Shown piece after piece: positions 11,929 to 53,292 of a stretch of 64,000 nt of DNA; positions within the stretch are counted from its first letter, which is position 1, and every line of letters starts with the position of its first letter. A program made the position numbers and the translations under genes. Under the pieces are notes generated by a model, which saw only the letters and a program-made list of their open reading frames with translations, ran no database searches and was not told the DNA's origin. The stretch lies in assembly GCA_044345405.1 (NCBI GenBank), contig JBIJBE010000019.1, forward strand, positions 1-64,000. Reading direction: 5' to 3'. Source of the stretch: Bdellovibrionota bacterium. GTDB taxonomy: Bacteria > Bdellovibrionota_C > UBA2361 > OMII01.

Positions 11929-14900
11929 TTAGAAGTTAATCCTCGCTGCAAGCTCGAAGATCGGATCGTTCACAACGATAGCGTTATCGTTGAACACCGC
12001 CTGCTCAAGGACGAAATCCTGCCCAAAGATATTATTGACCCCCGCGGTAATAAAACCGTGTCGGGTCGGAAGTCGGTAGCCAAGAGCGGCATCGAACATC
12101 CAGCCAGCGTCGCTTCCGTTCGGCACACCATCAAGTTCGTACCCCGCGCGATCTTGATACAGGTACGTGCCGCCAGCTTGCGCGAAAAACATATTGGTAA
12201 AGAAGTATCGGCCAAAAGCTCTATTGCGATGCCCCTTGATGAAAGAATCATCAGGAAGGCCCACAGTATTTCGCGCGTACCGATAGTCGTTCCCCAGAAC
12301 AAACCTATCAGTCACGATCTGATAAACATACGCTGAGACCAAATCCTGCTGAACGCTCACATTATCCCGATCTGAGTATTCGACGTCGGTCGAGACGGAG
12401 GCCTCGTTGAAATCAATATCGGCTGTGTAGACCGCAGGCACCCGGGGATCCTCCAACCACCGACGCACCCACTCTCCGCCGATATAGGTCGAGCGCCACG
12501 GCTGAAAGTCGAGACCCGTTCCGAAGTTCTGCGCGATAACGCCGGGATTGATATCCTGGTAGCGCTGCGAGATACCACCGATCAGGGTTGGCTCTACACT
12601 CGCGAGGGCGCTGAACGAGCTCCTGCCGAGGTTCTGTCCGTAGCCAACACGAGCGATCAACGCGCTGGACGGCTGAAACACGATACCTCCCTGCGGCGTT
12701 AACTTAGAGTTCGATTGATCGTCGTTGACAAACGGGGACTCCTGCCGAGCCGCGAAACCAACATGAGAGTAATCTGCTCCCACGTTGAGACTCAGGGAAT
12801 CGGTCGCCCTAACTGTGGCCAGATAATCAACCCCACTCGTCACAACGTTGTTGCTCGCGGAGCTTGAGAACTCGACACCAAGATCATCAAGGATTCCCAC
12901 GTCGTCATTAAGAAGAGTTGAGTGATCGTACGCGTCGAGGTCGTAGTTTGAGTACCGTCCGGTGAGAACCGATGTCACCACGCCGGTCCTATCGATCAAC
13001 TGAAGTTCATTCTCCGCCGCCGATTCGTACTGAGATTGCTTCTGATCGTACCGAGCATCCGTGAATTCATCCAGGGAGCCATCGGGGGAGGTTAGGTGAA
13101 GGCTAGAATTGTTGTCCGGTCGAGTTAATCGATCCTTTCCACGTCGATACGAAGTCTGGGCGATAATGGAGGTCTCCGGTGAGAACTTATGCAGATACGA
13201 TCCGTTGAAGGTGCCACTCGCATAGGTATCGTTCTCGTCGGTCTGATCACTGTCGTAAAACACCCCGCGGATCTCTCCGAGAAGACGATCCCCCCACGTT
13301 GGCTGCACTTGCACCGAGATACCAGCGCGCCCCTCATTGCTTCGAGGATCGTCGATCGCCCCATCACCATGTACCCCACTCGCGGTCAAAGCCGTAAGGA
13401 CATTACCACTCTTGTTCGCGCTCAAGATCCCCTCGACGAATTGATCGTCGTAGCTTGAATAGTTGCCGGTAATCCCGGTTCGCCAACCATCCCGTTCAAA
13501 GAGCGCGGAGTATTCATTGAGAGAAACGTTGGTGCCGATGGAATCAGCGACGTTAATACTGAGTGGAGAGAAGAGATCCGCGATCCTCCGTTCGGAGAGA
13601 GCGCTTGGCGCCGTAAGAACAGCCATATCCGTCTCCGAAAGTAATCGGTGAGCGCTCGCGTTTTGGTAATCATCGTAGATCGCCGAGACCGCTTCTATCC
13701 TCCCTCTCTGGGTGAATCCTAACTCTCGATAGACCCGCGCGAGCGAGGCGCTCTGCGTGGCGCTATCCTCGTCGAGAAGGAATTTAGAGCGATACACATC
13801 CCGCTTATCCGAGAGATCTCTGGCGGCCTCAATGTCACGAAGCGCCTCTACAGGTTTATTCTCCGCAAGGCGCATGAAGCTTCGGTAGAGGTGCGGAGTC
13901 GGATCGTTTGGGTCGAGCTCTATGGCGCGGGCATACTCAGGCTCAGCCGGGTCGTACGAATCCGCCTCGAAGTAGCTCTTCGCCAAATAGCTACGATAGA
14001 GAGAACGCGATGGCTCCAGAACTGTAGCCTTCTCAAACCGATTGCGGCCCTCCTCAAGGTTTCCACGATTCACTTCCACGAGTCCGAGTCCCATCTGAGG
14101 AAGGCCGGCACCCGGCTCCATCTGAGCGGCTCTCGAAAACGCCCCTTCTGCTTGATCGAAGGAGCGATCCCCCATTAACACAAATCCATAGACCGTCTCA
14201 GCGTACCACGAACGCTCGCGCAAGGTTTCAAGGAGCTCGCGAGCCTCTGGTACCCGGCCAAACATGAATAATAGTTCGGCCCGTCTGGCGGTGAGATCCT
14301 CACTGGATGTCGTATCGCTCGTTACCGCGGCCAAGGCACCATCGAGGTCCCCCTTGTCCTGAAGCGCGAAGGAGAGCGCCAGTCGCGCGGACACACTCGA
14401 CGGAGCGAGCGCCACCGCTTTTTGCGCTAACGCGCGAGACTCATCCCCCTGCCCCTGCGCCAGCTTTATGGCCGACAACGTCGAGGCCGCGGCGGCGACG
14501 ACACCGGAATCGGCCCCAGAGGTTACGCACCGCTCAAGCTCACGCACCCCGAGCGCCATATCTCCCCGAGAAACCAGAACACGACCCCGAAGCGCCCCCG
14601 CCATCGTACAGCGAGTCTCCTGACGTGGAAGAAGCGCAAGGGCCTCATCGCTCTTCCCCTCGGAGAGAAGGCGCAACGCTCGGGCGTCGACACCTCCCGC
14701 GAATTCCTCCGGCGCGAAAAGCGGCACAAACGCGCTCCACTGAACCGTTCGTTCCGACTGCATTAACGCGTACACCTCAGGAGCTTTGCCCTTTGAAAAA
14801 CGGGCTCCCTCTCCCGCTCCAAGCGCGGCGACGCCGTTAGAGCTAACACCCTGCACACTTCCACTCATCATCTTGATAGTGGTCGTGCTCGCGTCGGTAG

Positions 14901-15285
14901 TGAGCGAGAACTCCGTTCCTCGAATAGCCGCTGTCACGTGCTCCGTAACAACGGTCGGATGCTGCTCGGAGTGACTGAAGAAATGGAGAGCGCCCTCAAG
15001 GAGGCCGACCTTCTTGTCGGCGGCGGCCAGGGTCAATCGTGAGTTAGACGCGAGCCTCATGTACGAACCGTCCGACATCGCGAGGGCGACTCGTCCTGGG
15101 TCTCCAACCACGATCTCATCGCCCGCCTCCAGCCGCATTCCCTCACTCGCCGGTAACGCGCGCCCCCCTCGTTGGACAGAGGCATCCCCTTGCAACGAAA
15201 AGATTGAGGCCAAGGGCGCCGTATCCGCGAAGGCACGAGGCGAGCAGAGAAGGAGGCAAACCAGGGCGAAAAATAGTTTCTTCAT
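11929..15285 (-). CDS. FecR-domain / TPR / outer-membrane beta-barrel receptor (NsrA-like architecture)
   Basis: Signal peptide (AFA-D), FecR domain (TAAIRGTEF), several TPRs (e.g. YARAIELDPNDPTPHLY), beta-rich C-terminal half ending in Phe (RINF). Confidence 0.85.
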   Translation of the reverse strand: MKKLFFALVCLLLCSPRAFADTAPLASIFSLQGDASVQRGGRALPASEGMRLEAGDEIVVGDPGRVALAMSDGSYMRLASNSRLTLAAADKKVGLLEGALHFFSHSEQHPTVVTEHVTAAIRGTEFSLTTDASTTTIKMMSGSVQGVSSNGVAALGAGEGARFSKGKAPEVYALMQSERTVQWSAFVPLFAPEEFAGGVDARALRLLSEGKSDEALALLPRQETRCTMAGALRGRVLVSRGDMALGVRELERCVTSGADSGVVAAAASTLSAIKLAQGQGDESRALAQKAVALAPSSVSARLALSFALQDKGDLDGALAAVTSDTTSSEDLTARRAELLFMFGRVPEARELLETLRERSWYAETVYGFVLMGDRSFDQAEGAFSRAAQMEPGAGLPQMGLGLVEVNRGNLEEGRNRFEKATVLEPSRSLYRSYLAKSYFEADSYDPAEPEYARAIELDPNDPTPHLYRSFMRLAENKPVEALRDIEAARDLSDKRDVYRSKFLLDEDSATQSASLARVYRELGFTQRGRIEAVSAIYDDYQNASAHRLLSETDMAVLTAPSALSERRIADLFSPLSINVADSIGTNVSLNEYSALFERDGWRTGITGNYSSYDDQFVEGILSANKSGNVLTALTASGVHGDGAIDDPRSNEGRAGISVQVQPTWGDRLLGEIRGVFYDSDQTDENDTYASGTFNGSYLHKFSPETSIIAQTSYRRGKDRLTRPDNNSSLHLTSPDGSLDEFTDARYDQKQSQYESAAENELQLIDRTGVVTSVLTGRYSNYDLDAYDHSTLLNDDVGILDDLGVEFSSSASNNVVTSGVDYLATVRATDSLSLNVGADYSHVGFAARQESPFVNDDQSNSKLTPQGGIVFQPSSALIARVGYGQNLGRSSFSALASVEPTLIGGISQRYQDINPGVIAQNFGTGLDFQPWRSTYIGGEWVRRWLEDPRVPAVYTADIDFNEASVSTDVEYSDRDNVSVQQDLVSAYVYQIVTDRFVLGNDYRYARNTVGLPDDSFIKGHRNRAFGRYFFTNMFFAQAGGTYLYQDRAGYELDGVPNGSDAGWMFDAALGYRLPTRHGFITAGVNNIFGQDFVLEQAVFNDNAIVVNDPIFELAARINF

Positions 15286-15418
15286 GTGCGTCTCGCTCAA
15301 TAGTGAGAATCCCGCCGAGAGTTTAACCCACCAACCTACCCCTCACTAGATGGTAATCAACACCCCAAGCGAAAGAGGGATCTCGCCCAACACCCCCCAC
15401 GAATGATAAGAACCTCTG

Positions 15419-17386
15419 ATGAGGTTTATTACGCGTATCGCCATCGCCCTGGGTATAGGTTTAGTGAGTTCACTGATCCTCTCCACCTCGTTGGTGGACG
15501 ACCTCGAGTTTCGCGTATCCGATCAGTGGATGCGCCTGCGAGGGCTGAAAACACCTCCCTCCAATATAGTCGTGATCGCGATAGACGAGCCGAGCTATCG
15601 GGAACTTAAAGCCTCTTTCGATAAGCCGTGGCCCCGAGCCCTTCACGCAAAACTGCTGCGCAACCTCAAAGAATTTGGGGCTAAGCGGGTCGCCTTCGAC
15701 ATCCTCTTCACGGGAGCATCCTCGGAGGCCGATATCGACAGAGATCTAGCGGAAGCTTTCGGGAGCATCCCTTCGATAATCGCAGTCGAATCGAGTGTGC
15801 GCACCGTTGGAAATCAGGGCGGCGGCTATCAACTTGAGGAACTCGACCGTCCATATGAGCCGTTTCGCAAGGTAGCACAGGAGGCCTTGATAGGACTTCA
15901 AGACCTCAAGGGCACTATCAGGTATTTTCCACACCCTCGCTCTGAGCAGGAGCGACGCTTCCCCACCTTAGCGCAGGCCGCGGCCGGTCTCCGGTCCGAT
16001 GCGCCCAATCTGCCTGGCCCACGTGACCTCATCCGGTACTACGGTCCGGGCCGCACCTTTCCGGTTATCTCCTTCTGGGAGGTGCTCGAAGATCCCCTCC
16101 CCGTCACAAAAGATCTTATCAAGGACGCAACGGTGGTGGTGGGACTCTCCATGCGCTCCGACATCGGTGGCGCTCAAAAGGACTCATATCAAAACCCCTT
16201 TGGCGCGCCGATGATCTTCGGAGTCGAGGTTCACGCCACCGCGCTCGCCAACCTCCTCACCGAGGGATGGATACATCGCCCCTCCCACACTGTCGAGGTA
16301 CTCGCTCAAGGCGCCGCCATAACCGCAGCCTCTCTCATGGCACTCTCCGTCACCCCCGTTATCCTTGCCATAACGTGCGGAGCTTTCGCCGCGGTGTGGT
16401 GTCTCGCGTCGTTTATTCTCCTCGGTCAGGGATTTTTTCTTAGTGGCGCGGCGACCGCTCTCATTATTCTTCCGATCATGGTCTTGGTAAGCGCGCTTAT
16501 CTCATACGTCTCCTCGCGACGAGCCGAGGAGAGCCTCCGCTCCGCGATGTCACTCTACGTGTCCCCTGATATGGTGCCCCGACTACAACAGGAGGGGGGC
16601 GCCCTTAAGCTCGGAGGAGAGAAGATGTGGCTCACGGCGATGTTTACCGACATCGCCGACTTCACCTCAATAACCGAGGAGATGCCAGCCGAGCGAACCT
16701 CTGAGATGCTCAACGCCTACTTTACAGAGGTCATGGAGGTGGTGTTCAAAAACCAAGGCACCCTCCTTAAATTTATCGGGGACGCTATCTTCGCGATTTG
16801 GGGCGCTCCTGTAAAAACTCAAAACCACGCCGAGCTCGCGCTGCAGACCGCTATCGCTATCAACAGAGAGGTCTCTCGCTTCAACGCTACGCAACGGTTT
16901 CCCGCGCTAAAAACTCGAATAGGTGTCCACACCGGGCCTATGTTGGTCGGAAACCTCGGGTCGACGAAGCGATTCGACTACACAGCGATCGGTGATTCCG
17001 TTAACCTTGCCTCCCGTATCGAAGGACTCAATAAATACTTCGGCACGACCATCCTCTTCACAGAAGCTACCCGGAAGGACGCCGGAGGGTTCGCTGGAGC
17101 GGTCCTCATGGGCAGTGTTCGGGTCAAAGGACGGCGAGAGGCTGTTCCCCTCTATTCACTTTTCGACCCCCCTCTTGAGCATCCGGTTCGTGAGGGATGG
17201 GAGCGAGCGCACTCCGCATTCTGCAAAGCTCACTTCGATACCTTTCTACGGGACGCTGCCGAACTCGAATCGAGGGAGTCGCGTTTAAGCACGACCCTCC
17301 GACTCTACCGAGAAGAGTCGCGTAAGTATGCGGATACGCCACCTCCCCAGGGCTGGTCGGGAGAGTTAGACTTTGACCACAAGTGA
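15419..17386 (+). CDS. CHASE2-domain class III adenylate cyclase
   Basis: CHASE2 (IVVIAIDE, PWPRALHA, GVEVHATALANLL), three TMs, cyclase motifs FTDIADFT, LKFIGDA, DYTAIGDSVNLASRIEG; the Lys/Thr pair indicates ATP specificity (class IIIb). Confidence 0.93.
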   Translation: MRFITRIAIALGIGLVSSLILSTSLVDDLEFRVSDQWMRLRGLKTPPSNIVVIAIDEPSYRELKASFDKPWPRALHAKLLRNLKEFGAKRVAFDILFTGASSEADIDRDLAEAFGSIPSIIAVESSVRTVGNQGGGYQLEELDRPYEPFRKVAQEALIGLQDLKGTIRYFPHPRSEQERRFPTLAQAAAGLRSDAPNLPGPRDLIRYYGPGRTFPVISFWEVLEDPLPVTKDLIKDATVVVGLSMRSDIGGAQKDSYQNPFGAPMIFGVEVHATALANLLTEGWIHRPSHTVEVLAQGAAITAASLMALSVTPVILAITCGAFAAVWCLASFILLGQGFFLSGAATALIILPIMVLVSALISYVSSRRAEESLRSAMSLYVSPDMVPRLQQEGGALKLGGEKMWLTAMFTDIADFTSITEEMPAERTSEMLNAYFTEVMEVVFKNQGTLLKFIGDAIFAIWGAPVKTQNHAELALQTAIAINREVSRFNATQRFPALKTRIGVHTGPMLVGNLGSTKRFDYTAIGDSVNLASRIEGLNKYFGTTILFTEATRKDAGGFAGAVLMGSVRVKGRREAVPLYSLFDPPLEHPVREGWERAHSAFCKAHFDTFLRDAAELESRESRLSTTLRLYREESRKYADTPPPQGWSGELDFDHK

Positions 17387-17527
17387 CGGGCGTATAAAGC
17401 GAAAGGCCCCTTCAGCAAAACGGCATATCAGCCGACTAATTGTGTGTGGTCACCGCCTCAATACGATCGTAAACTGCCTAAAGAGATTCCAGCCATTAAG
17501 CTAGGGAAAATTCGTAGAGCGCCATCT

Positions 17528-19291
17528 ATGATCAAACGCATCACTATACGACCACTGCTACTAGCCGGAGTATCACTCTCACTGCCCTGTCTTGTAGCGC
17601 AATCTCAAAGCCTCGTTCCATCCGTTCCAACTCAGATATCGGTCGGACTTGGTCCCGCCGCCTCAAACTCCGAAAGTGACGAGGTGGTAGTATCCCCGAA
17701 CGCGAACATAGTCGCCTTTAAATCCATCGCCTCTAATTTGGTAGACGGCGACACTAACCAGTCCGCCGATGTTTTTGTGCGAGGCACGAGCGGAGTCATT
17801 ACCCGCGTCAGCGTTTCCAGCGAGGGAGCCCAAGGCGACTCGTTTAGTCGAGATCCGTCGATGTCTCAACTTGAGCCGAACGGCGCGTACGGTGTCGCTT
17901 TCGTTTCTCGCGCCTCGAATTTCGCCCAGGGACTAACCCCGCAAGAGTTAGAGTATTCCCAGGTGTATCTCCGATTGCCCCATCTCAACAAAACGATCCT
18001 TGTAAGCCGTGGGTACGAAGGCTCTGGCTTTGTGGCTGGCATGGGCTCCAGCGAACATCCGTCAGTGGTATCACTTGAGGGCGGAGCGAAATTCCTCGTC
18101 GCGTTCCATTCTCAGGCGTACAACCTCGTGCAGGGTGCCCTTCCGCCGGGTGGAATCACCTCGCCTCCCAAGCGAATATTTATAGCGACCGTTAACGCGA
18201 TCACTGGGGCCGTTACCATAGACGTTCTCCGGGCAGGCAACACAAACGATCCGCAGGTGGACTTCCTGGACCCCGTCTTGAATGGCTCCGGAACGAGGAT
18301 CGCGTTTCGCACAAACTCTGAGGAACTCGGATGGACGAACGCCACACGGTTTACCTATCAGGTCGTACTAGGAAGCAAGGCAAACAAGGGAACGTTCGAG
18401 CTCATCAGTCGTAGCCCCGTTGATGGAAGCCCGGGAACAGAGAGTAGCGACTCCCCCTCGATGAGTTTCGACGGAAACGTGATCGCTTTTAAAACGAACT
18501 CCTCAAACATCCTCAGCTCTACCCCGAACTCCCCCTCCCTTGTCGCGTACTCAACATCGACGAAACAGTTCAGCCTCATCAACTCGAACCAGGTGGGAGA
18601 GCGGGGAAATCAGTACGTCCAGGAATCGGTACGACTTGACCCTAAAGGTAGATTCGCCGTATTCACCGATTCCAGTGATAACTACCTTCCCGCCGGTGTC
18701 GATACAAACTCCCGCGGCGATATCTTCGTCAAGGATCTCCTGAAGGGCTCCATCGTTCGGGTCAATGTGGGAGCTAACGGCGTTGAGGAAACGAACGGCT
18801 ACACAGGCGGCCCCTGGCTCGGGACACTCGGTTACAACAGTCAAACCCTTACGGTTGGTTTTCATTCCTCAGGCACCGCCCTCCTCCAATACCCTCACAG
18901 TTCAGGCGGGCTTGTGAGAGAAGTGTATCGCTCTACCCTCTCCTTCCCCCCACCGACCATTCAAAACAACGCTCCGATCGAAACACCTCCCGATGTCACT
19001 CCGGGAGCTCGGAAGGTGTTCCTCGTGTTGCAGAAATTTGATCTATCGACCTCGTTATCGTCCCTAGATGAGATAGGAACGCTCGCCACGAAGGTGACCT
19101 ACGATATTCGTCTCACCAAAACGACCACGAATACCCAGCGAAAGATAACGACCACCAAAAACCGCGTGACCCTTCGAAATATCACTCCGGGAACCTACAC
19201 CGTAAAGTATCGAGCGAGTGGCACGAACTCTAAGGGTAAAAAGGTGACCACGAAGTTCAGTCCGAAACAAACGGTGAAGGTTACTAAGTAA
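17528..19291 (+). CDS. Secreted TolB-like beta-propeller protein with basic beta-sandwich C-terminus
   Basis: Signal peptide; repeats such as VAFKSIASNLVDGDTNQSADVFVR and PSMSFDGNVIAF; Lys/Thr-rich FN3-like tail. Confidence 0.75.
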   Translation: MIKRITIRPLLLAGVSLSLPCLVAQSQSLVPSVPTQISVGLGPAASNSESDEVVVSPNANIVAFKSIASNLVDGDTNQSADVFVRGTSGVITRVSVSSEGAQGDSFSRDPSMSQLEPNGAYGVAFVSRASNFAQGLTPQELEYSQVYLRLPHLNKTILVSRGYEGSGFVAGMGSSEHPSVVSLEGGAKFLVAFHSQAYNLVQGALPPGGITSPPKRIFIATVNAITGAVTIDVLRAGNTNDPQVDFLDPVLNGSGTRIAFRTNSEELGWTNATRFTYQVVLGSKANKGTFELISRSPVDGSPGTESSDSPSMSFDGNVIAFKTNSSNILSSTPNSPSLVAYSTSTKQFSLINSNQVGERGNQYVQESVRLDPKGRFAVFTDSSDNYLPAGVDTNSRGDIFVKDLLKGSIVRVNVGANGVEETNGYTGGPWLGTLGYNSQTLTVGFHSSGTALLQYPHSSGGLVREVYRSTLSFPPPTIQNNAPIETPPDVTPGARKVFLVLQKFDLSTSLSSLDEIGTLATKVTYDIRLTKTTTNTQRKITTTKNRVTLRNITPGTYTVKYRASGTNSKGKKVTTKFSPKQTVKVTK

Positions 19292-19305
19292 CGGCCATTT
19301 CTACC

Positions 19306-19469
19306 ACGTGAACGTGCTCGTGCGCGTAAACGTGAACGTACCCGAGCCCGATCCGCAGTATCAATCCATGGCGTAACTTTGTGCTATTGCCGAGCGCCCT
19401 CGTAAATTTATCAAGGACGAACAATATTTTCGGGTACGTTCACGTTCATGTTTACGAGCACGTTAACGT
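19306..19469. repeat. 39-bp imperfect inverted repeat pair (REP-like) between convergent genes
   Basis: 19306-19344 is the reverse complement of 19431-19469 (CGGGTACGTTCACGTT...GAGCACGTT.ACGT) with 6 mismatches; third copy at 51022-51060. Confidence 0.85.
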
Positions 19470-19533
19470 CCGAACAAGAGCGAGTAGGCTCACACTAAGC
19501 CGGAGCCGACGCAACCACGTGCCGAACCGCTTC

Positions 19534-22500: not shown

Positions 22501-23256
22501 TCCCCGCTCGAACACGCGGAAAATATCGGCCGGAGGGAGAACCTCCCAGGTCGGAAGTGGCAAGAGCTTCTCAAGGGCGCCCCGCGCTCGCATCTCTTTC
22601 GTGAGTGGGCGTCCATCGTGGACGATACTCGCGGGTTGCCCGTTCTGGGTATAACTCTCCCCAAGGAGATAGTTCTTATACGGAAGGATACCGTTGTTGT
22701 AGGCGGCACCACCCCACAACATCGCCGAGGTGGTCATCAAGCTCTTCTTCACCGCGGTCGTTATCTCTGAGTGACACCCACCACACGCCGCGGGAGCGGC
22801 GCGCAGGTCTCCAGGATTAACGAAACGCGCGAATTCGACAGATTCCTTGAGAAGGTTTGTGTAGGAATGCTTCGGATTGGCTGAGGTGGGCCAGTTCTCA
22901 GGATGTTGAGGAAGGATGTGCGCCGCCTTCTTTCGCTCCGTGTAGAGCGGAGAGCTCTTTGCTACTCCCTGAGCGCGAACGGTAGGGTCTCCCCCGTGAC
23001 ACTCAGCGCACCCGATATGAACCGCGGGATTCTGATGCATGGTCGGCGCGTCGGTTTTGGTGTGACAATCCGTACATCCAAGGCTTGTTGCCTCCATCTG
23101 TTGAGGCGAGCCCCCTGGCCGAATGATATTTTTGTACTCCGCGTCATCAGCAAATCCGTTCCCCATGGTGCCTACAAGGAGCGCGACCAGCGAGAGGAGG
23201 AAACGGAGCGAACCTAGCCGCGAATCTTTCAGTGATGCTCTTTCCTTGATATCCAT
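19534..23256 (-). CDS. Large decaheme c-type cytochrome with C-terminal LVIVD-repeat propeller
   Basis: Signal peptide; 10 CxxCH (CTDCH, CAECH, CGGCH, CTACH, CMVCH, CVDCH, CDDCH, CYACH, CGGCH, CKDCH); LVIVD-type repeats (YAYIGGGKEGIVIIDVERPEKP etc.). Confidence 0.9.
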   Translation of the reverse strand: MDIKERASLKDSRLGSLRFLLSLVALLVGTMGNGFADDAEYKNIIRPGGSPQQMEATSLGCTDCHTKTDAPTMHQNPAVHIGCAECHGGDPTVRAQGVAKSSPLYTERKKAAHILPQHPENWPTSANPKHSYTNLLKESVEFARFVNPGDLRAAPAACGGCHSEITTAVKKSLMTTSAMLWGGAAYNNGILPYKNYLLGESYTQNGQPASIVHDGRPLTKEMRARGALEKLLPLPTWEVLPPADIFRVFERGGMFVKSQFAEIGVPNPLEEPGKPDVRASNRGPGTGARIAVPVINIHKTRLNDPHLSFLGTNDHPGDYRSSGCTACHTIYANDRDPRHSGPYAKFGHEGKTQTIDPTIPKNEEGHPLKHLFTRAIPTSQCMVCHMHQPNMFVNTYIGYTMWDYESDAPFMWPEKQKYPTMEESYKSMEHNPEEAAMRGKWTDIDFLKRVSELNPKLNTTQFADYHGHGWNFRAVYKRDRKGHLLDKDGKIVSFDDPQKFKKAVHLQDIHVDFGMQCVDCHFSQDTHGDGNIYGEVAQAVEISCDDCHGNVTQRAALKTSGPAAADGGRDLTTKRTPWGERQFVWKDDGLYQRSLVTEGLEWRVKQVKDSVNPGNRDYNAKSAKAKLVKKIADGADSYTLATAQEASNPEFEENLAHPNSDMSCYACHSSWTTACGGCHLPIQANWKKETNHYEGKITRNWASYNPQVARDEMYQLGRHGPAKNGKIVPVRSSSALMLSSTDINRQKIYIQQPPTSSAGYSSQAFAPHFPHTVRARETKECKDCHLSKENDNNAILAQLMTLGTNFVNFMGYYTWVASADGGVEAVQVTEWDEPQAVIGSYLHRYAYPDYYKAHQERGLELEESHAHHGVGERTNAIQMRGEYLYTAAGSDGFRVYDIANIANKGFSERIVTSSVSPLGQNIHVPSKNATGLALPTTMPVAPFKTQLPENLETPMHPIYHYAFITDSEEGLIVVNVDTLQDGEPRNNFLERALTWNEDGVLSGARNIALAGARAFIGTEDKVVVLSLEDPLSPRVEATWSARKPTGVAVQFRYAFMTDADGFHVIDMTFPEKPRRVPEASIALSDARSVYVARTYAYIGGGKEGIVIIDVERPEKPSLYQKFSGKGTLNDTYDVKVATTNASLIGYAADGVNGLVVLQMTDPERVPGFYGFSPPVNPMIIAKKRTVGPALAISKPLDRDRAADETGNQVSVMGRIGSRPFTLEEMRKMFLTNEGRVWTVE

Positions 23257-23264
23257 AATTCGAC

Positions 23265-25109
23265 TCAGTACTGAAGAATCAAGTTAGTGAAGGCGTGATA
23301 GTTGGTCTGATTGCCGAAAAGGTTCTCCTGCCCGGCTTCAGGAAGGAGAACCGCCGATCCAACACGAACCAAAACGTTTTGGTTCAAGAATGGTCGATAG
23401 AGGAATCCAGCGGAGAGATCCCACCCGATATTTCTACTGATAGAACCATCCATACGAACCGCCTCGAGGCTCGCCGTCTGATCGAACTGCAGGAAGCTGG
23501 CGTTCGTCACCAGCTTAAGCTCCGGCAAAAGCTCAAAATCCACACCCAAGTTGTAGAGACGGAGGCCGGGATTCACGAAGTTCGATTGCCCCATCTCCTT
23601 CGTGGCGCGAAAGTTCGGAAGAAGGCTGTTACGATTGGTCAAGTTCGTACCGCCGGTTCCAACAAACGGTATCCCCTCACGTTGCCAATACGAAAGATCC
23701 CCCCCAGCGAAGTTAGGCGAGTCGAATATCGCGTCAAAACCGGTGCCCTGGTTGTCCCGAGGATCCTTATCTCCTGAGGCCCACATACCGGACACCCTGA
23801 GCCGGATCCAATCGATGTCGTACGAGAACTCCTGCGCGACCATTCCGGCGTTGATGTCGACCTGTCGCTGCGCTATCTCGTTGTGGCTCTGAGAGCCGAG
23901 CGCATAGTACATCTGCGTGGTGGTATTGATCCTATCGATGTGACCATCCCCACCAACGCCCAAATAGGTGGAGTAGATATTTCCGGGACGCTCATCCCCG
24001 ATCGGAGCCGGTCGCGTGAGGAACCCGTTTTGGTCATACACATATCCTTGATTGCCTGAGGTATCTCCTCGATAGACAACGCTCATGCTCGTCGTGTGCC
24101 CAGGGGCCAGAAGATCCTGCCTATAGGTGTTCGCGACCACGACCGCCTCATGCCGGTTGTCGAAGGTCGAGTTAATTCCCGAGTTCACGTTCTTGTCGAG
24201 CCGATTAAACCACGCCACGTTGAACTGCGTCTTGTTATTGTCGTAGTCACCGAAGAAGCGAACTCCGGGTTGGTTATCGTTGTAGAGAAAGCCTCTAAAA
24301 TCCGCGTTGAATTGTTGAATACCACCACGCATCGAAACGAAGTCGTACCGCTCAGAGAGGTTGGCGAGGTGAACATCGGCGAAGAGTTCCTGGAACCCCA
24401 CGTCGTTGGTGGAGCGGGTATCGCCCCGCGCTGGGTCCGCGAAGAGGATTCCATCCTCCTCTGCTTTGACATAGTTAAAATTAAATATCGGTGCGATACG
24501 CAGCTCAAAATCGGGGGGCTTAAATGAGGTATTCCCCTTAATGAGACCGAAAGACACGATCACATTTTCGCCGAAGATCGTCTGATTCCCATCACCGAAG
24601 GTATCGTTGCTATTCGGGCGCCTCGTTGACGCGAATCCAACGGGAACTGGAACTCGCCGAGCCTCAAAGAAGGTATCGGAGATTACCGAAACTTCGGTAA
24701 ACCAAGGTTCAGCGGGCGAGCCAAAGACAGGGATATCCCCCTTCAACACGTTCTGGTTATAGGGGTCATACCACTTGCCGGCGTAAAACATCCGCCACCG
24801 ATCAGGAACCGGCACGAATCCGGAGGCCGAACTCTCGATAGGCTGCACCGACTCGTAGATCGTTTCAGGGAAGTAATCCGTTTCTCGGCCGGGAAAGGAG
24901 CGCTGAATAAGCTCCTGGGGAACCTTGTGCGATTCAGGGGTGGATACTACCGCAGCCGGTTGAGCTTCACCGTCTTCAGCGCGCGCGGCTACTGAGAACA
25001 CCACAACGAAAATGAGCGCAACGAGGAGAGCGCGAACAGGGCCGAAGGCGGAAGCAAGCTCCCAACAAGCTACCGCGCTCTCCTCCCGCTCTCCTTGGCA
25101 TCCTCGCAT
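23265..25109 (-). CDS. Putative outer-membrane beta-barrel (porin-like) protein
   Basis: Signal-like hydrophobic segment (ARA-E), amphipathic aromatic beta strands, C-terminal aromatic residue (LILQY). Start uncertain (25109 or 25139). Confidence 0.7.
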   Translation of the reverse strand: MRGCQGEREESAVACWELASAFGPVRALLVALIFVVVFSVAARAEDGEAQPAAVVSTPESHKVPQELIQRSFPGRETDYFPETIYESVQPIESSASGFVPVPDRWRMFYAGKWYDPYNQNVLKGDIPVFGSPAEPWFTEVSVISDTFFEARRVPVPVGFASTRRPNSNDTFGDGNQTIFGENVIVSFGLIKGNTSFKPPDFELRIAPIFNFNYVKAEEDGILFADPARGDTRSTNDVGFQELFADVHLANLSERYDFVSMRGGIQQFNADFRGFLYNDNQPGVRFFGDYDNNKTQFNVAWFNRLDKNVNSGINSTFDNRHEAVVVANTYRQDLLAPGHTTSMSVVYRGDTSGNQGYVYDQNGFLTRPAPIGDERPGNIYSTYLGVGGDGHIDRINTTTQMYYALGSQSHNEIAQRQVDINAGMVAQEFSYDIDWIRLRVSGMWASGDKDPRDNQGTGFDAIFDSPNFAGGDLSYWQREGIPFVGTGGTNLTNRNSLLPNFRATKEMGQSNFVNPGLRLYNLGVDFELLPELKLVTNASFLQFDQTASLEAVRMDGSISRNIGWDLSAGFLYRPFLNQNVLVRVGSAVLLPEAGQENLFGNQTNYHAFTNLILQY

Positions 25110-25119
25110 CTCTACCCGC

Positions 25120-27009
25120 CTAGAAGTCCTGACACACATTTTGGTCGTTGTCGCGGATGAACGGCGCCTCCGGACAATTTACGTACCGCAATCGAATCTG
25201 CTCGGGCGTCAGGTTGATATGATCAGCCCGCATCGCCTGAGGGGCGTTGAATCCGAGCTCAGGATCCCCAACCGTGGACTGACCAGCGTAGTTCAAGCCC
25301 GCGCGACTCGATGAGTAGAACGCGACGAGATCATCCTGGTCAATGCCGTCCCCACTAATGCCGATCGCGCCGATGAGGGTGCCCGATCTGTAGAGAGGAA
25401 CCGCGCCGGGGAATATCTGAATACCGTTTCGAGCGCGTCCCCCAAGTCCTGAGCCGGAGGCGCACCCCGATGGTGGGCTTGCTGGATGAGCTATAGAGGC
25501 GATCATCGCGGTCTTCACTATGTCGAGCTGCAAGCCGGTATTGAATGGACTCCACGTGTTTCCAACACCAGGGAATGGAAGTGAGAGCGGCCCAGGCCCC
25601 GTGCCATCGATACCATCCGGCATAAACGGTCGAGCCATATTGCCGATCGACCGCGCGGTGTACGCGTACGAGCCGTTGAGCGGAACGCCGGTAAAGGCGG
25701 TGGTCTCGGCGACGTAGTTACGACTAAACCCCTGCCCGCTCGACAGCACCCCAGCCGCGTCCGTTGAGCTAAAGAGCGCCGCGCCACGCGCTTTTTGAAG
25801 CGATACATCGATACCAAACACCGGCGCGTCTTGCGAACGAACAAAACCAAGAGGGTTACCGAGATCATCAACGACAAAGATCGACACACGCGCGTTTGTA
25901 TCAAGAGGATATCGAATCGCCGCGCGGGTCCGCGACGCGGTGATGATAGCTGAGGTGAGGAGCGCGTCCACCTCTCCAGCTTGAAGTTGCGCTCCGTTGG
26001 CGAGGGGGCGCCCCGCCTTGGTGCCGAACCGCCCCGTAAGGACGGCCGCGGGAACTCCGGCGCGCGAGGTCACGACGATCCCGGACTCCGGGGAGCCGAA
26101 GGTAACACCTGCTCGGATGGTAGCCCCGCAATATCCTGTAACAGCCTTGAGCCCTCCGTTTTCCAATGCATCGAGGGTGTCTGGTGGCGTTATGGCACCG
26201 TAGGAGGTATCCGAGAATCGGAGAGAACGTCCAGCGACTGAGATGTTATCAGCGGTACGCTCCGATGGAGCCTCGAACCCGAGAGAGGCGGCGAGCGCGA
26301 CCTGCTCCTCAGGATCCTCATCCGTGTCCGAGACGACTCTATCTACCGTATACAGCCCATCGAACTCGACCCCAATACCACCGACGATATCGCCGTTCTT
26401 GTAAAGGGGAATGCCACCCGGGTCACCGGAGAGACCGAGAGGAAGTGGTCGGGGACCGGCGGAGCCCGAACCCTTCACGGTCACATCACTACAGGCAAGT
26501 TGCGAAAACTGAACACCAAACAGAGGCCCTCCAGGAGCGTTGTTTTGCCCAGGAACGAAGTGTTCCTGAATGATCTGACTCGCCGTCCTTGTGGTGAAGG
26601 CGTTCCCTTGGCTACTCAGATACGAGCCGGTCCCCGCTTTTGATATCGCGGCGAGTGTTGAAGGTACCACAGCGCCCTCAAGCCCTCCGGCCGCACCGAG
26701 TTGACCGTTGATTGTCGTCGTGGCCGGCGCTCCCGCCATCTGATAGACGGCGAGGACGTTACCAACTCTATCGAGAACCGCGAAGGTTCCCGCCGTCCCC
26801 AATTGCCGCGTAGCGGTTACCGCTTGTTGTAGGATCACGGTAACATCAGCTGGCGTGAGGGCCTGATAGGCACATCCTCCGTCGCAACCGAAGTTCGCTC
26901 CTCCACCACTCTGTCCGCCACCTCCACCGCCGCCGCCCCCTCCTCCACATCCAACGGTGGTAAGGATAAGCGTGGCAACAAGGAAGTGGGCAATCGGGAA
27001 ACGTACCAT
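25120..27009 (-). CDS. Lipoprotein with two GlcG/HbpS-like heme-binding domains
   Basis: Lipobox TVGC plus an 11-Gly linker; two domains: AVLDRVGN...SKAGT...GGIPLYKNGDIVGGIGV and VVDDLGN...QKARGA...GAVPLYRSGTLIGAIGISG. Confidence 0.82.
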   Translation of the reverse strand: MVRFPIAHFLVATLILTTVGCGGGGGGGGGGGQSGGGANFGCDGGCAYQALTPADVTVILQQAVTATRQLGTAGTFAVLDRVGNVLAVYQMAGAPATTTINGQLGAAGGLEGAVVPSTLAAISKAGTGSYLSSQGNAFTTRTASQIIQEHFVPGQNNAPGGPLFGVQFSQLACSDVTVKGSGSAGPRPLPLGLSGDPGGIPLYKNGDIVGGIGVEFDGLYTVDRVVSDTDEDPEEQVALAASLGFEAPSERTADNISVAGRSLRFSDTSYGAITPPDTLDALENGGLKAVTGYCGATIRAGVTFGSPESGIVVTSRAGVPAAVLTGRFGTKAGRPLANGAQLQAGEVDALLTSAIITASRTRAAIRYPLDTNARVSIFVVDDLGNPLGFVRSQDAPVFGIDVSLQKARGAALFSSTDAAGVLSSGQGFSRNYVAETTAFTGVPLNGSYAYTARSIGNMARPFMPDGIDGTGPGPLSLPFPGVGNTWSPFNTGLQLDIVKTAMIASIAHPASPPSGCASGSGLGGRARNGIQIFPGAVPLYRSGTLIGAIGISGDGIDQDDLVAFYSSSRAGLNYAGQSTVGDPELGFNAPQAMRADHINLTPEQIRLRYVNCPEAPFIRDNDQNVCQDF

Positions 27010-27023
27010 CGAAAAATGTCCTT

Positions 27024-28691
27024 CTATCTCGTCAACGTGTGGAGGAAATCGGTGAGGCTTTGTTTTTTCTCTCGGGGAACTTCAAGGGCGGCGTGATAGG
27101 CGTGACACTGAGTGCAATCAGACTCAACGAAACCTGCCTTCGCGCCCTCCATATGACACTCCCGACACACCGCGATCGAAGGCAACAAAAGATCCTTCGT
27201 TTCCGTGGATGTTCGAGTCTTCTCGTGACACGACTCGCACGAGAGCTCCTCGTGCGCCCCGTGATCAAACCGCGCCTTCGTCATCCACACCGCAGGGATG
27301 TTCGGAGCGGTGATGGTGTAGCGAGTCTCATCGACCCGTTGATCGGAAAGGGGCTTCTCCCGATAGGTGTGACAGAGGAAGCATCCTGTTCGAGTAAAAA
27401 CCTCCTCCTCAGCGCGGCGAGCGCTCGATTGGACAAGCATCGCGTCCGGGCTCAGTGGTCGAGACTCGGCCACAGTGTCCCCTCCGCCAGGCAAGATCCG
27501 AGCGCCATCGATAGGCGCTGCGGTCTCCCTCCCTCCATCAAGCAAGAGGAGCTTCGCGTACTCAGCGAAGAGCGTTGGATAGACGTCCGAATCATCTCCG
27601 TGGGGCAACTGTTTATCCGGCAACCGTTCATCGAATCCGAGGCTATGACACGATCGACAGTTTCGATCGAACGATACAGGCAACATCTCTCGTTTATCCG
27701 TGGAGAGCTCATGGCAGGCGTTACACTGAAGGGTCGTAGGTCCTTGCGGGCCCCGAAGCCCCTCTCTCAGATGCACGGCATGGTTCAACTTGATGGCCGT
27801 AGAATCAATCGCTCCTTTTGGATCATCCACGGGCACTCGCTGGGTCCCACCCGCGTTATCAAAAACCGATATTCTAAATTGAGGATGCGTCGCGAGATTC
27901 GCGACATCGAGCGCCCGCCCCTTGTGCCTACTCATCGTCGCGTGACAAGAGACACACTGGCGAGAGTCTCGGAGGATTAAGCCGTGATCTCCATTATGCT
28001 CCATGTGACACTGGGCGCACCGAAGCTCTAGTCCCTTGTGCTTCGAAAGAAAGTCCTTCTCGCCCTCAGCGTGTTGAGACATGACGTGACAATTCAAACA
28101 CTCTCGATCCTCAACCCGCTCAAACGGCGTAAGGTGACACCGCTGACAATCGTTTTCAATCATACGGTGCGCGTTCGAGACAGGACCACTACTCCACTCA
28201 CGGTACCGTCCACTCACAAGGGGATAGGCGAAACATCCAGCGAGCACCAAGAGAGCGGCGACGAAGGAGAGGAGCCGAATTGAGGGAAGGTACGACTCCA
28301 GTTGAAGCTTCCGCGCTCGCCGAGCGACGACCTCAGTATCCGATACACACTCCTGACTGACGGACCGAAGGGTAAGGGTGACCTGGTCGCCCGATATGCC
28401 AACCAGAAGAGAGAGCTCCCCGAGCTGAATAACATCACCAGAGGTAAGCGTGTGTCGAGCCACCCGCGTGTTGTTGACGCGCACGCCCACGAACGAGTCC
28501 ATATCCGCGATAGAAACCCGACCATCTTCCAGATACACCTTCGCGTGAACAAGCGAGAGGGCCGCGTTCGCCAGGACAATATCAGATGCACCACCCCGAC
28601 CGATGAGGACCTCATGTTGATCGAAAGCGTCACTACTCCGCTCAACCGCGCCGTCACCGTTCTCCCTCTCGTGAATGAAGAGTATTCTCAT
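27024..28691 (-). CDS. FHA-domain, membrane-anchored decaheme cytochrome c (c3-like)
   Basis: FHA (IGR..SLVHA), one TM, 10 CxxCH (CQRCH, CLNCH, CAQCH, CVSCH, CNACH, CRSCH, CFLCH, CESCH, CRECH, CTQCH). Confidence 0.9.
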   Translation of the reverse strand: MRILFIHERENGDGAVERSSDAFDQHEVLIGRGGASDIVLANAALSLVHAKVYLEDGRVSIADMDSFVGVRVNNTRVARHTLTSGDVIQLGELSLLVGISGDQVTLTLRSVSQECVSDTEVVARRARKLQLESYLPSIRLLSFVAALLVLAGCFAYPLVSGRYREWSSGPVSNAHRMIENDCQRCHLTPFERVEDRECLNCHVMSQHAEGEKDFLSKHKGLELRCAQCHMEHNGDHGLILRDSRQCVSCHATMSRHKGRALDVANLATHPQFRISVFDNAGGTQRVPVDDPKGAIDSTAIKLNHAVHLREGLRGPQGPTTLQCNACHELSTDKREMLPVSFDRNCRSCHSLGFDERLPDKQLPHGDDSDVYPTLFAEYAKLLLLDGGRETAAPIDGARILPGGGDTVAESRPLSPDAMLVQSSARRAEEEVFTRTGCFLCHTYREKPLSDQRVDETRYTITAPNIPAVWMTKARFDHGAHEELSCESCHEKTRTSTETKDLLLPSIAVCRECHMEGAKAGFVESDCTQCHAYHAALEVPREKKQSLTDFLHTLTR

Positions 28692-28694
28692 GAG

Positions 28695-29513
28695 CTACCA
28701 GAAGAAAAACACCGAGAGTATGTGGATAGCGACCGCGACGCACGTCGCGACTGAACTGGGCACATGAACAAAGAGCCAGAGACGCAAGAGCGCCTTTATT
28801 CGCGCCTCCTCAAGCAACCCGTTCGTCAGGTCGCACTTTTGATCGAGCAAACCAAAGAGGCGGAGCGCCTCATCACGCTCATTCTCTGGAAGGTTTCCAA
28901 GGGCGTCCCCCGCCATCCGTTGATCGATATGAACGAGCTTCGGCGCCCGAATAAGGGTCGCGAGGCTAACCACGAAGGGTGGATTGAGTCGCTCGGCCAA
29001 AACTCGAAACGCATCACTCTTTCCGAGACACATCTGCTTAATTGAAGCGCCTAGCGAACTCAACTGTTCAAGGACCTGCGTCGATTTCACTCCACCTCTG
29101 TGGGACTCGATGCGCGACGCGAGGGTGGTGTAGTTAACTACCCCCCACATTCCGCTTACGATAGTCACGACCATCAGAAAAAACGCGAGAGAGTGCACGT
29201 TCCACCCGAAACTAAATCCGGCGTGAAGGGGCACGAGCGCAAGGAGCCCGGTTCCGATCCACACGTGGGCGGAGAGCCATCCTTGCACGCTGCCCAGGGC
29301 CGAATGATACGCTCTCTTTCGCGCGCCGTAGAGCATGAGCCATATGAGTCCGATGGTCGCGAGTGTACCGAAGGTATATCCGACCGCCGTTCCACCGTTG
29401 CGACCTCCGATCGGGTCATCAACGACGTAGATGCCGCAACACACCGCGACCGCGGCCACGGTGATTACGAGCCATCGATAGTTCCGATATGAGATGAAAC
29501 GTTCCTGCATCAC
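28695..29513 (-). CDS. Integral membrane protein, probable di-heme cytochrome b / ferric-reductase-like
   Basis: About 5 TMs with paired His in two helices (WLSAHVWIG...LVPLHAGF; WLFVHVP...VAIHILSV). Confidence 0.65.
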   Translation of the reverse strand: MMQERFISYRNYRWLVITVAAVAVCCGIYVVDDPIGGRNGGTAVGYTFGTLATIGLIWLMLYGARKRAYHSALGSVQGWLSAHVWIGTGLLALVPLHAGFSFGWNVHSLAFFLMVVTIVSGMWGVVNYTTLASRIESHRGGVKSTQVLEQLSSLGASIKQMCLGKSDAFRVLAERLNPPFVVSLATLIRAPKLVHIDQRMAGDALGNLPENERDEALRLFGLLDQKCDLTNGLLEEARIKALLRLWLFVHVPSSVATCVAVAIHILSVFFFW

Positions 29514-29517
29514 GCCG

Positions 29518-31860
29518 CTATATCCTCTTCGATTGCGCGATTCGAATCAGCTGTTCGGCGTCTACTCGCATCGCTGCCCCCGTTGGACACGCTCGAACAC
29601 ATGCCGGACCACCGGATAACTCATGGCACTGATCACACTTAGCTGCCTTTGCGGGGCCCTCAACGACCTCACCGAATCCGAGCCATGCCAGAAGTGAGTT
29701 CCCCTTCCGAACGTGCTCGTGGGTGATGTGTATGACACCGTATGGACAATTACCCACACAATTACCGCATCCGATACATGAGTCCTTGATAATAACCTCG
29801 CCGTTCGGGAGCCGGACCAGCGCGTCGGGAGGGCAATCGAGCATGCATAACGGGTTCTCGCAGTGACGGCACGAGATAGGAAGCTGAATCGAGGCGAAGC
29901 TCTTGCCACCCCGTCGATCGAGTCGTGAATGCCCACCGTGCGTCGCGGCGCACGCGGCTTCACAATTATCACACGCGACGCAGAGGTCGGAATCAATCAG
30001 AAGAACGTTCTCCGCGTCCGTTAAGCCCTCTGTGGCCATGAAGTCGAGGAGCGATCCTGATTTTTCATCCCAGTTCGTCACCACGTTCTCAACCTTTCGC
30101 TCCTGCGCGATTCGGGATATCCGCTCACGCGCCGCGGGGAAGGCGCGAAGGAGGTCGAGAAAATCCCCCTTCTCAATAAGAATAGTCTCGCAGCCAACCG
30201 CAGCCGTTACCGTGGCAGATCGAGGCATCTCCTTCTCAGAGAGAATAGACATCTCCCCCACATAGTGTCCCGCCGCTATGTACGTTTGCGCGACATCGAC
30301 ACCGGCTCGGTTTCTCCGCGATATCTTTACCGAGCCCTTACGAATAACGTAGAGGGCATCTCCAATATCCCCCTCTTTGAAGAGCGCTTCTCCCTTTTTG
30401 AAACTCTTCATCTTGGCTCGCTTCACCAGCGCCTCAAGGAAGCCACGCTCAACCTCCGGAAATATGGAGGTCTGAAGAGCTCGAAGGATAAACACCTCAT
30501 CCAATGACCGACGCACCGATTTCACCGATGCCATGAGCTTAAGGATCTGTTTCCGTGGCGTCTCAAGGAGGATCGCCCCACGGTCACTCACTCGCGCGGT
30601 AGCGGTTCTGCGCCTCCCGGAGATCAGTCCCATCTCTCCAAAGAAATCACCCGCCTCAAGGGTAACGACTCGATGAGGCGCGACCTCGATCTCAACCGCG
30701 CCCTCGACAACGCTCCAGAAGGTGTCAGTGTGGTCGTTCCTCTCAAACACGACCTCCCTCGGCGATTTTACGTGGAATGTCGAATCGATGATCATTTCGC
30801 GCGTTTGAGGGGCGCTCAGATCCGAGAAGAGCGGGAGACTACCGGTGACCTTTTCGAAGTTTTTTTCGAATCCTCCTGGGAGGCTCTTGAAGCGCTCCTC
30901 CAATAGGGGTTGGTCAGCCGGCTCAACGGCCACACCTCGGATATGCTCGATCACCTCGTATCCTTGGTTGATCGCCTGCTTGATTAAGGGATATCCAATG
31001 AGCGCCCCGAGGATGAAGAGATTGGGAACGTTTGACTCGTAGCGAGCGGACACCCTCGGCACCGCGGTGGATTCCTCACTCGGAAACTCTACCCCGATCG
31101 ATTCCAAAAAACCCCGAGGCAGAACGCAGCCGAGACGAGCGATTACGTGATCACACGGGATAGCTATCTCACCATTCGGTGTCGAGACGGTAAGCACGTT
31201 TGACTCAACGCGAGCGACGACTGAATTGTAATAGCAGCGAATCTTGCCACTCTCTATCGCGGTCAGGGCCAACTTCGCGTTCGCCTCCTTCGCTCGGGCG
31301 AATTCCTCACCCCGGTTGAGTAACGAAACCGTATTGTGAACGCTCAACGCCAAAGCGTTCTCTATGGCCGCGTCGCCAGCTCCCACCACGACGATGTGGC
31401 GCCCTTTAAAGGCGTCCGGATCCGAGAGCGTGTACGCCACATGCGGCGAGTCGCCGCCCGGCGCGGTCACCTTTCGAGGAGAACCTTGAACGCCGATACT
31501 CAGGACAACGTGGGTAGCGGTGCAGATAAAACCGTCGTAGTGAATCTCAAAGTTCTCTCCCACCTTGGAGATCTTCGTGACCTCCCCTTTGACGAGATTG
31601 ACGGAGTGGGAGGCCAGGTCAGACGCGAACTCCTTAAGGATCTTCTCTCTACTCCCCGCCTCGAACCGACACCGCGCGCGAAGGGGAAGCTTGGAAGGCT
31701 CCGCCATAACATGCTTGCGGAGCTGATAGTCGTGAATGGTGTTGGCGATCTCTCCCTTCTCAATGAGGATATGTGAGAGCTTATGGTGGGCGGCGTTTGT
31801 AGCGGCTCCGATACCCGCGGGCCCTGCCCCAATTATCGCGACGTCGAAGTGCTCTGTCAT
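29518..31860 (-). CDS. FAD/NAD(P)H oxidoreductase fused to two cNMP-binding domains and a 4x[4Fe-4S] ferredoxin domain
   Basis: GAGPAG and GAGDAA Rossmann motifs with no TrxR CxxC; cNMP cassettes FGEMGL..RTA and VGEMSI..RSA; four Cys groups CVACDNCEAAC, CRHCENPLCMLDCP, CIGCGNCVGNCP, CDQC..PACVRACP (DmsB/NrfC pattern). Confidence 0.92.
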   Translation of the reverse strand: MTEHFDVAIIGAGPAGIGAATNAAHHKLSHILIEKGEIANTIHDYQLRKHVMAEPSKLPLRARCRFEAGSREKILKEFASDLASHSVNLVKGEVTKISKVGENFEIHYDGFICTATHVVLSIGVQGSPRKVTAPGGDSPHVAYTLSDPDAFKGRHIVVVGAGDAAIENALALSVHNTVSLLNRGEEFARAKEANAKLALTAIESGKIRCYYNSVVARVESNVLTVSTPNGEIAIPCDHVIARLGCVLPRGFLESIGVEFPSEESTAVPRVSARYESNVPNLFILGALIGYPLIKQAINQGYEVIEHIRGVAVEPADQPLLEERFKSLPGGFEKNFEKVTGSLPLFSDLSAPQTREMIIDSTFHVKSPREVVFERNDHTDTFWSVVEGAVEIEVAPHRVVTLEAGDFFGEMGLISGRRRTATARVSDRGAILLETPRKQILKLMASVKSVRRSLDEVFILRALQTSIFPEVERGFLEALVKRAKMKSFKKGEALFKEGDIGDALYVIRKGSVKISRRNRAGVDVAQTYIAAGHYVGEMSILSEKEMPRSATVTAAVGCETILIEKGDFLDLLRAFPAARERISRIAQERKVENVVTNWDEKSGSLLDFMATEGLTDAENVLLIDSDLCVACDNCEAACAATHGGHSRLDRRGGKSFASIQLPISCRHCENPLCMLDCPPDALVRLPNGEVIIKDSCIGCGNCVGNCPYGVIHITHEHVRKGNSLLAWLGFGEVVEGPAKAAKCDQCHELSGGPACVRACPTGAAMRVDAEQLIRIAQSKRI

Positions 31861-53264: not shown

Positions 53265-53292
53265 CTTCGCCGGGAGATCCCGCAGATGATCA

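Follow-up and report, generated by a model that had tools for sequence, protein, structure and literature searches.

What does a cyclic-nucleotide signal act on when its source is encoded near an electron-transfer operon? The question is raised by a 64,000-nucleotide stretch of a Bdellovibrionota genome (assembly GCA_044345405.1, contig JBIJBE010000019.1, positions 1 to 64,000; hereafter the window), in which genes for an outer-membrane receptor and a CHASE2 adenylate cyclase lie near a multiheme cytochrome operon headed by a redox enzyme with two cyclic nucleoside monophosphate (cNMP) domains. Bacterial cyclic AMP (cAMP) is thought to act mainly via CRP-family regulators, according to the accessible text of PMC13001267, and a literature search that covered few subscription journals returned no proposal of cNMP gating of such a chain. 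Our analysis leans, with somewhat better than even confidence, towards an operon encoding an electron chain that crosses the envelope and is controlled at its cytoplasmic entry enzyme by direct action of cyclic nucleotides. The complete non-transcriptional circuit, in which a surface cue would act through the outer-membrane receptor on the CHASE2 cyclase and the cAMP formed would switch on an NADPH-fed envelope wire, is unlikely.

The enzyme gene (29518..31860, minus strand) encodes a predicted cytoplasmic oxidoreductase of 780 amino acids. Pfam, NCBIfam and an AlphaFold2 (AF2) model (predicted local distance difference test, pLDDT, 88.5; predicted template modelling score, pTM, 0.77) divide it into an FAD-NADPH domain of the thioredoxin reductase (TrxR)/Bdr fold (residues 1-310), the cNMP domains (about 341-590) and an Fe-S domain of the HydN/DmsB type (615-770). 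The Pfam assignment (Pyr_redox, two cNMP and Fer4 domains) bears out an earlier sequence-only reading of this DNA, which had placed tandem cNMP domains in the first operon gene. The closest fold to the flavin domain was Bdr/YpdA (Z 33.5, root-mean-square deviation 2.2 over 305 residues), and residues 1-310 contain an NADPH-type motif and no CxxC. Identity as a dithiol-type thioredoxin reductase was ruled out by the missing CxxC and by a score below the NCBIfam cut-off for TIGR01292; a stand-alone Bdr/YpdA identity was rejected on TIGR04018 (140.7 bits, cut-off 339.9), although the fold is shared. The Fe-S domain has 16 conserved cysteines in the four-cluster HydN/DmsB pattern, and four [4Fe-4S] clusters are predicted. 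No solved protein combining flavin, cNMP and Fe-S domains was matched by sequence.

A single GTDB scan that used the operon's decaheme-propeller gene as anchor supplied the relatives, at least 598 among the 600 matches listed; among these, the closest to the anchor are mostly labelled Bdellovibrionota. The best 80 of the at least 598 relatives, with flanks of up to 10 kb, form the loci sample, which favours close sequences and in which many loci are truncated; those that reach 21 kb or more, 36 in number, are called near-full here. The enzyme alignment comprises 51 sequences (the window, 48 GTDB loci and two from Sphingobium; genes of fewer than 740 codons were dropped), with identities of 40-76%.

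Both cNMP pockets look functional and conserved across phyla in this alignment. The phosphate-binding cassette G-E-...-R-[ST]-A was found in both domains and is weaker in distant representatives. G408, E409 and R418 of the first pocket occur in 51/51 sequences, as do G535 and R547 of the second, where E536 is kept in 48/51 (Gln in three). Ligand-contact residues rank among the most conserved positions of both domains, sequence matches to PKA/PKG regulatory domains cover both and are among the best solved relatives, and the pocket FGEMALIDNQNRSA of Bd1971, a cAMP-binding Bdellovibrio enzyme described in the accessible text of PMC6717892, resembles those found here. The protein is likely a cNMP-regulated redox enzyme. 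Among 16 representatives chosen for unusual length or coverage are members in which the cNMP-FeS core carries FHA or PilZ fusions or another input domain; two FHA domains are fused in relative P0141. Some relatives lack the flavin domain or have it replaced, and split cNMP-FeS forms occur elsewhere.

The second gene (28695..29513, minus strand) encodes a ferric-reductase-like membrane protein of 272 amino acids with an Atlas score of 0.97 to clusters of that name; a solved sequence relative was not found. It has two histidine pairs, His83/His97 and His250/His264, each 14 residues apart. H83 and H97 are invariant and H250 and H264 are kept in at least 90% of an alignment of 46 sequences, and the four histidines would carry a di-heme b. 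The Fe-S domain and this protein were modelled as a complex, which scored 0.64 (best control 0.39). This score passes a mark that 116 of 157 solved complexes attain, as do 2 of 215 mismatched pairs; the runs had at least 83% of their contacts in common, and partner pLDDT was at least 78. The modelled interface sets enzyme residues 624-630 and 755-762 against membrane residues 66-80, 128-145 and 240-243, adjoining His83 and His250, and places the C627/C630/C758 cluster against the residues just before these two inner histidines. The model supports binding of the Fe-S domain to the membrane protein.

These two genes open a six-gene operon that runs on the minus strand from 31860 to 19534, with spacings of 4, 3, 14, -20 and 8 bp. 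The third gene (27024..28691) encodes a 555-residue protein with an FHA-like domain, one transmembrane helix and a periplasmic decaheme cytochrome c, as judged by Pfam, CxxCH motifs and hydropathy; ten CxxCH motifs are kept in 49/52 sequences, and the phosphothreonine-binding residues of the FHA domain less regularly (Arg 41/52, Ser 11/52, His 37/52, without a conserved Asn-Gly). It is followed by a tandem GlcG/HbpS-like protein of 629 amino acids (25120..27009; two PF03928 domains), a probable lipoprotein by its N-terminal lipobox-like Cys and encoded in 36/36 near-full loci. The fifth product, 624 amino acids (23265..25139), is a probable outer-membrane beta-barrel by sequence pattern, signal peptide and C-terminal aromatic residue; it has no Pfam or NCBIfam family match, and its gene is present in 78/80 loci. 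The last gene (19534..23256) encodes an exported decaheme cytochrome c of 1240 amino acids with a C-terminal LVIVD beta-propeller, identified by Pfam, CxxCH motifs and AF2 (pLDDT 79.3, pTM 0.85). It is unusually conserved (median identity 57%); fold searches returned solved propellers only, with the heme part barely sampled, and no solved sequence relative was found. A divergent gene for a tetraheme cytochrome c554-like protein (32074..33366, plus strand; Pfam, CxxCH) belongs to the cluster, with four CxxCH in 50/50 sequences and presence in 28/36 near-full loci; it lies outside 11929..31860, the span of the sequence-only reading. The cluster cytochromes thus have 10, 10 and 4 CxxCH motifs. 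All six operon genes occur together in 35/36 near-full loci, and the enzyme gene directly precedes the membrane gene in 34/49.

Two accessory groups of genes were seen in relatives. A conserved 150-residue gene without Pfam match lies between the FHA-decaheme and HbpS-like genes in L018, L020, L023, L027, L059 and L076. Cytochrome c maturation genes diverge from the operon upstream of the membrane gene in L016, L038, L048, L055, L061, L077, L078 and L082; these form a CcmH-like cluster, with CcmB- and assembly-protein clusters in some loci.

In the proposed chain, electrons would pass from NADPH to FAD, through the four [4Fe-4S] clusters to the membrane protein with its two b hemes and on to the membrane-anchored decaheme; from there they would reach the tetraheme and the decaheme-propeller protein, placed close to or at the barrel in the outer membrane, and a presumed final acceptor. 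The cNMP domains lie between the flavin and Fe-S domains, where a bound cAMP (or cGMP) molecule would shift the domains and gate electron transfer. It is plausible that cyclic nucleotides control electron flow allosterically, because the Gly and Arg of both pockets are present in 51/51 sequences and the model docks the Fe-S domain by the inner histidines.

Ligand and direction could differ from this scheme: the pockets might read cGMP or 2',3'-cNMP, or electrons might flow inward from a periplasmic oxidation, the module being a redox sensor in surface-signalling islands. In 35/51 sequences the first Arg is followed by Thr or Ser, a feature tied to cGMP use in the accessible text of PMC6717892, whereas all aligned CHASE2 cyclases have the Lys and Thr/Ser of adenine-specific enzymes. 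A phosphodiesterase encoded beside the operon in Sphingobium scores best, below cut-off, to the 2',3'-cNMP enzyme SpdA. The high conservation of the decaheme-propeller protein suggests a catalyst, and loss or replacement of the flavin domain in some relatives would also suit these alternatives; against them, the step from NADPH to a c-type heme is downhill. These alternatives are distinctly unlikely.

The possible source of the signal lies beyond the 3' end of the operon. The FecR-TPR-beta-barrel gene (11929..15300, minus strand; likely start ATG at 15285), the CHASE2 cyclase gene and the multiheme operon named in the sequence-only reading are all real by open reading frame (ORF) listing and Pfam. 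FecR and TPR domains were found by Pfam, and the barrel through relatives, since many of the 120 listed receptor homologs have the TonB-receptor barrel PF00593. The receptor is thus a single chain with FecR, TPR and a C-terminal barrel, of NsrA-type length (about 1100-1200 amino acids). A profile of its family matched the FecR protein encoded upstream of cyaK on pSymB of Sinorhizobium meliloti at E 1.8e-93 over FecR, TPR and barrel (reversed control -11); pairwise, the best segment was 27% identical. We take this pSymB protein to be NsrA from its position and size; its record reads 'FecR domain-containing protein'. A tblastn search of plasmids with the receptor found nothing; misses by a single sequence are weak evidence because this one overlooked the pSymB homolog that the profile found.

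The cyclase (15419..17386, plus strand) has CHASE2 and class III domains and is 31% identical to CyaK, and annotated CyaK is among its best plasmid matches. Both metal-binding Asp, the transition-state Asn/Arg and the adenine-type Lys and Asp/Thr are present in the motif alignment with CyaK; given the usual roles of these residues, the catalytic and adenine-specificity residues are intact and an adenylate cyclase is predicted. The suggestion of an NsrA/CyaK-type pair is upheld by the full-length receptor homology and the cyclase identity. The two ORFs as listed are divergent and 118 bp apart; an FNR-like palindrome with one mismatch at 15347-15360, between them, may be chance.

The distances are less close than had been suggested. 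A spacing of about 2 kb from the operon is right for the cyclase, whose end is 2148 bp from the last operon gene, and not for the receptor, which is 4.2 kb away; to call the cyclase a neighbour of the cNMP enzyme was an overstatement, with 12,132 bp between the two genes. A PD40-like propeller protein of 615 amino acids (17444..19291, plus strand; Atlas lead 0.90), which appears to be a bystander, has no homolog in the 80 loci and was not mentioned in the sequence-only reading, is encoded between cyclase and operon. Receptor, cyclase and operon form a block lying between murE-like and mraY-like genes (Pfam). Overall and at third codon positions, receptor and cyclase match the other window genes in GC content, which gives no indication of recent transfer.

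The absence of a CRP-like regulator from the window was confirmed with Pfam over 45 ORFs, and a cNMP profile run over six frames of the 64 kb detected no other cNMP domains. This holds for the window and says little about the genome, and the pair could signal via an unlinked CRP or Clr, as in S. meliloti, its proximity being coincidental and the enzyme's cNMP domains structural. CHASE2 cyclases are known to signal through Clr, according to the accessible text of PMC13001267, and a Crp/Fnr gene is annotated in the cluster of Sphingobium herbicidovorans. The conservation of the ligand-contact residues argues against structural domains. In the upstream regions of 29 enzyme genes, boxes for CRP, Clr or FNR showed no excess over shuffles (CRP and FNR by their consensus, Clr from the accessible text of PMC5498481), and cyclases and phosphodiesterases recur by the operon. 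Transcriptional output with chance proximity is the least probable of the readings considered, and direct action on the enzyme is still favoured.

Whether this receptor activates this cyclase, with its cAMP acting specifically on this enzyme, is a narrower matter and was examined across genomes. Of the 403 non-core ORFs in the loci, 379 of at least 95 amino acids were clustered and 282 of 283 representatives were scanned with Pfam; cyclase and FecR profiles were additionally run over six frames of the loci. Class III cyclases were found in 8/80 loci, all near-full and from five lineages: CHASE2 types in L006, L073 and three Limnobacter loci, FHA-fused in two Nevskiaceae and Tll0287-fused in L045. 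FecR genes occur in 9/80 loci, directly with a CHASE2 cyclase in 4. Co-occurrence of cyclases with the operon, which the sequence-only reading had proposed to check, therefore stands for varied, non-orthologous enzymes and not for this receptor, whose barrel half had no match in any of the 80 loci. The Tll0287-like sensor cyclase (L045:2342-3907) lies upstream of an operon copy with no enzyme gene in view and a multiheme gene split into two ORFs.

Three close relatives with 10 kb seen downstream (L005, L006 and L007) lack the receptor. L006 has a different CHASE2 cyclase 7.5 kb off, past seven other genes, and this was rejected as an ortholog at 30.6% identity. Neither receptor nor cyclase was seen in L015 (4.5 kb downstream) and L010 (2.6 kb), and four further close relatives are too short for judging the linkage. 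Conserved receptor/cyclase linkage, set beforehand as the test of the idea, does not hold for this pair. In two Sphingobium replicons, viewed to 20 kb on either side, the anchor gene and a CHASE2 cyclase are 14 kb apart, and an SpdA/CpdA-like phosphodiesterase follows the enzyme, membrane and decaheme genes on the same strand; no cyclase is in view in a Sphingopyxis locus.

A dedicated local circuit would be consistent with receptor, cyclase and enzyme lying within 20 kb, with FecR and CHASE2 cyclase pairs directly after the cluster in four loci (three from Limnobacter, one from Acidobacteriota), and with the Sphingobium cyclases. It is rather unlikely given the missing receptor, the lack of the pair in the three close relatives, and neighbouring cyclases that are about 30% identical to that of the window, no nearer than CyaK. 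The block sits among cell-wall genes, operon neighbours differ from relative to relative, and clusters of CHASE2 cyclase, FecR, TPR and phosphodiesterase genes are reported as horizontally transferred in the accessible text of PMC9239204. On a FastTree tree of 41 rows, three short loci left out, the cyclase label changes 7 times. Because of these changes and the identity of about 30%, the pattern fits repeated recruitment of cyclases rather than one inherited cassette, gain and loss being indistinguishable. We propose that receptor and cyclase form a mobile NsrA/CyaK-type cassette of their own; it would probably feed the cAMP pool read by the enzyme as one of several interchangeable inputs, without being its dedicated partner.

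The recurrence of cyclases in separate lineages, with a phosphodiesterase in Sphingobium, favours direct cyclic-nucleotide control of the chain. Several points weigh against it. Within view, no cyclase occurs in 72/80 loci (28/36 near-full). Five cyclase lineages in 0.54 Mb of non-operon DNA, with no matched control, give P = 0.0002 if 1 cyclase per Mb is assumed and P = 0.077 at the S. meliloti density, with assumed genome sizes; 28 cyclases are given for S. meliloti in the accessible text of PMC13001267, and four are annotated in B. bacteriovorus in that of PMC6717892. Ser/Thr-signalling genes (PP2C, tandem-FHA or Ser/Thr kinase) are commoner neighbours, in 16/80 loci. Some distant family members may have lost cNMP binding, because the pocket Arg is retained in only 25/38 and 27/38 more distant representatives. 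The AF2 model gives no measurable interdomain geometry. The complex job was unlike its calibration (own alignments, ligands carried along), and its passing score may come from resemblance to solved Fe-S/cytochrome b pairs such as FdnH-FdnI.

The Ser/Thr-signalling neighbours have an order of their own: PP2C phosphatase and tandem-FHA genes come after the operon, beyond the tetraheme gene, on the same strand in 11 loci (L022, L028, L031, L037, L044, L049, L053, L054, L057, L071 and L083). Since these genes follow the operon and P0141 has fused FHA domains, a second, phosphorylation-based input to the chain is suggested. Other neighbours include an MscS-cNMP channel with an MBL-fold hydrolase (L016:17561-20139) and a HEAT-cNMP protein (L064:11235-14417). 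A putative class II phosphodiesterase of L016 matched Pfam PDEase_II at E 9e-14, but its best NCBIfam match was RNase Z, and no cyclase domain was seen in the HAMP protein of L064. The operon is bordered by genes for two-partner secretion, CHAT proteins and giant cadherin-like adhesins at L001:484-14593, L044:19775-23679 and, from about 17700, in L062 and L070, hinting at surface-contact islands.

In the window itself, the cell-wall and division genes are split between 8120-10686 and 36427-46210 (murD-, mraY-like; murE-, ftsI-, rsmH- and mraZ-like by Pfam). Three long ORFs near or among them (35408-36346, 37991-40186 and 40470-42197) have no Pfam or NCBIfam match, and the region 48871-63720 holds an Endostatin-like domain protein, a pectate-lyase-like gene and a Wzx/Wzy polysaccharide cluster. 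Scans of the window for tRNA genes and Rfam families gave no match, and promoter and terminator scans did no better than shuffles.

If the full circuit were true, its users would include many bacteria that are not known for extracellular electron transfer, and the cyclase or kinase cassette attached to it would vary between lineages. With a PKA-like tandem cNMP redox enzyme at its head, the chain would let a second messenger control electron flow in a matter of seconds. In GTDB the operon is common, as the anchor scan indicates, and it occurs in culturable genera (Sphingobium, Limnobacter, Colwellia and Parahaliea).

Parts of this arrangement are familiar from known systems. The flavin domain has the fold of Bdr/YpdA and TrxR-type ferredoxin-NADP+ reductases, without the CxxC; the Fe-S domain has the four-cluster Cys pattern of the HydN/DmsB/FdnH subunits; and the membrane protein has paired histidines on two helices, as in NOX/FRE/MsrQ ferric-reductase domains. 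Compared with all three, electrons would here run through Fe-S clusters to periplasmic multihemes. We would liken the whole, by analogy, to a second-messenger-regulated NADPH oxidase-type chain.

The receptor and cyclase resemble NsrA/CyaK in that a FecR-TPR-barrel protein of similar length adjoins a CHASE2 cyclase; the genes are divergent here and co-oriented in S. meliloti, the sequences are distant and the window has no Clr. Bd1971 is a cAMP-sensing EAL phosphodiesterase of Bdellovibrio under allosteric control without transcription, according to the accessible text of PMC6717892. It shares a cNMP domain fused to an enzyme, a near-identical phosphate-binding cassette and the phylum of the window's closest relatives, and differs in having one cNMP domain and a phosphodiesterase output, against tandem domains and a redox output here.

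The nearest described counterpart of the operon is ptdABCDEFG, a putative porin-cytochrome operon scattered across phyla and of unknown function in the accessible text of its report (bioRxiv 10.1101/2023.11.21.568154). Both have a porin, an FAD/NAD(P) oxidoreductase, a tetraheme, a cNMP-domain Fe-S protein, a ferric-reductase-like membrane protein and a decaheme, a likeness by description that rests on heme counts and predicted types, with the barrel inferred. Flavin, two cNMP and Fe-S domains are fused in one 780-residue chain here, whereas PtdC and PtdE are separate genes; 16 Cys for four clusters stand against two clusters in ptd; a decaheme-propeller protein takes the place of PtdA (pentaheme, C-terminal beta-sandwich); and the GlcG/HbpS lipoprotein is added. 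Cyclases and cAMP are not mentioned in the accessible part of the ptd paper. The operon resembles ptd and is not classed as a member because PtdA and the fusion differ. What is new, in a reading to which we give modest but favourable credence, is a probable cNMP-gated path from NADPH to the periplasm in a cluster resembling the already described but functionally unexplained ptd, for which such gating would offer a mechanism.

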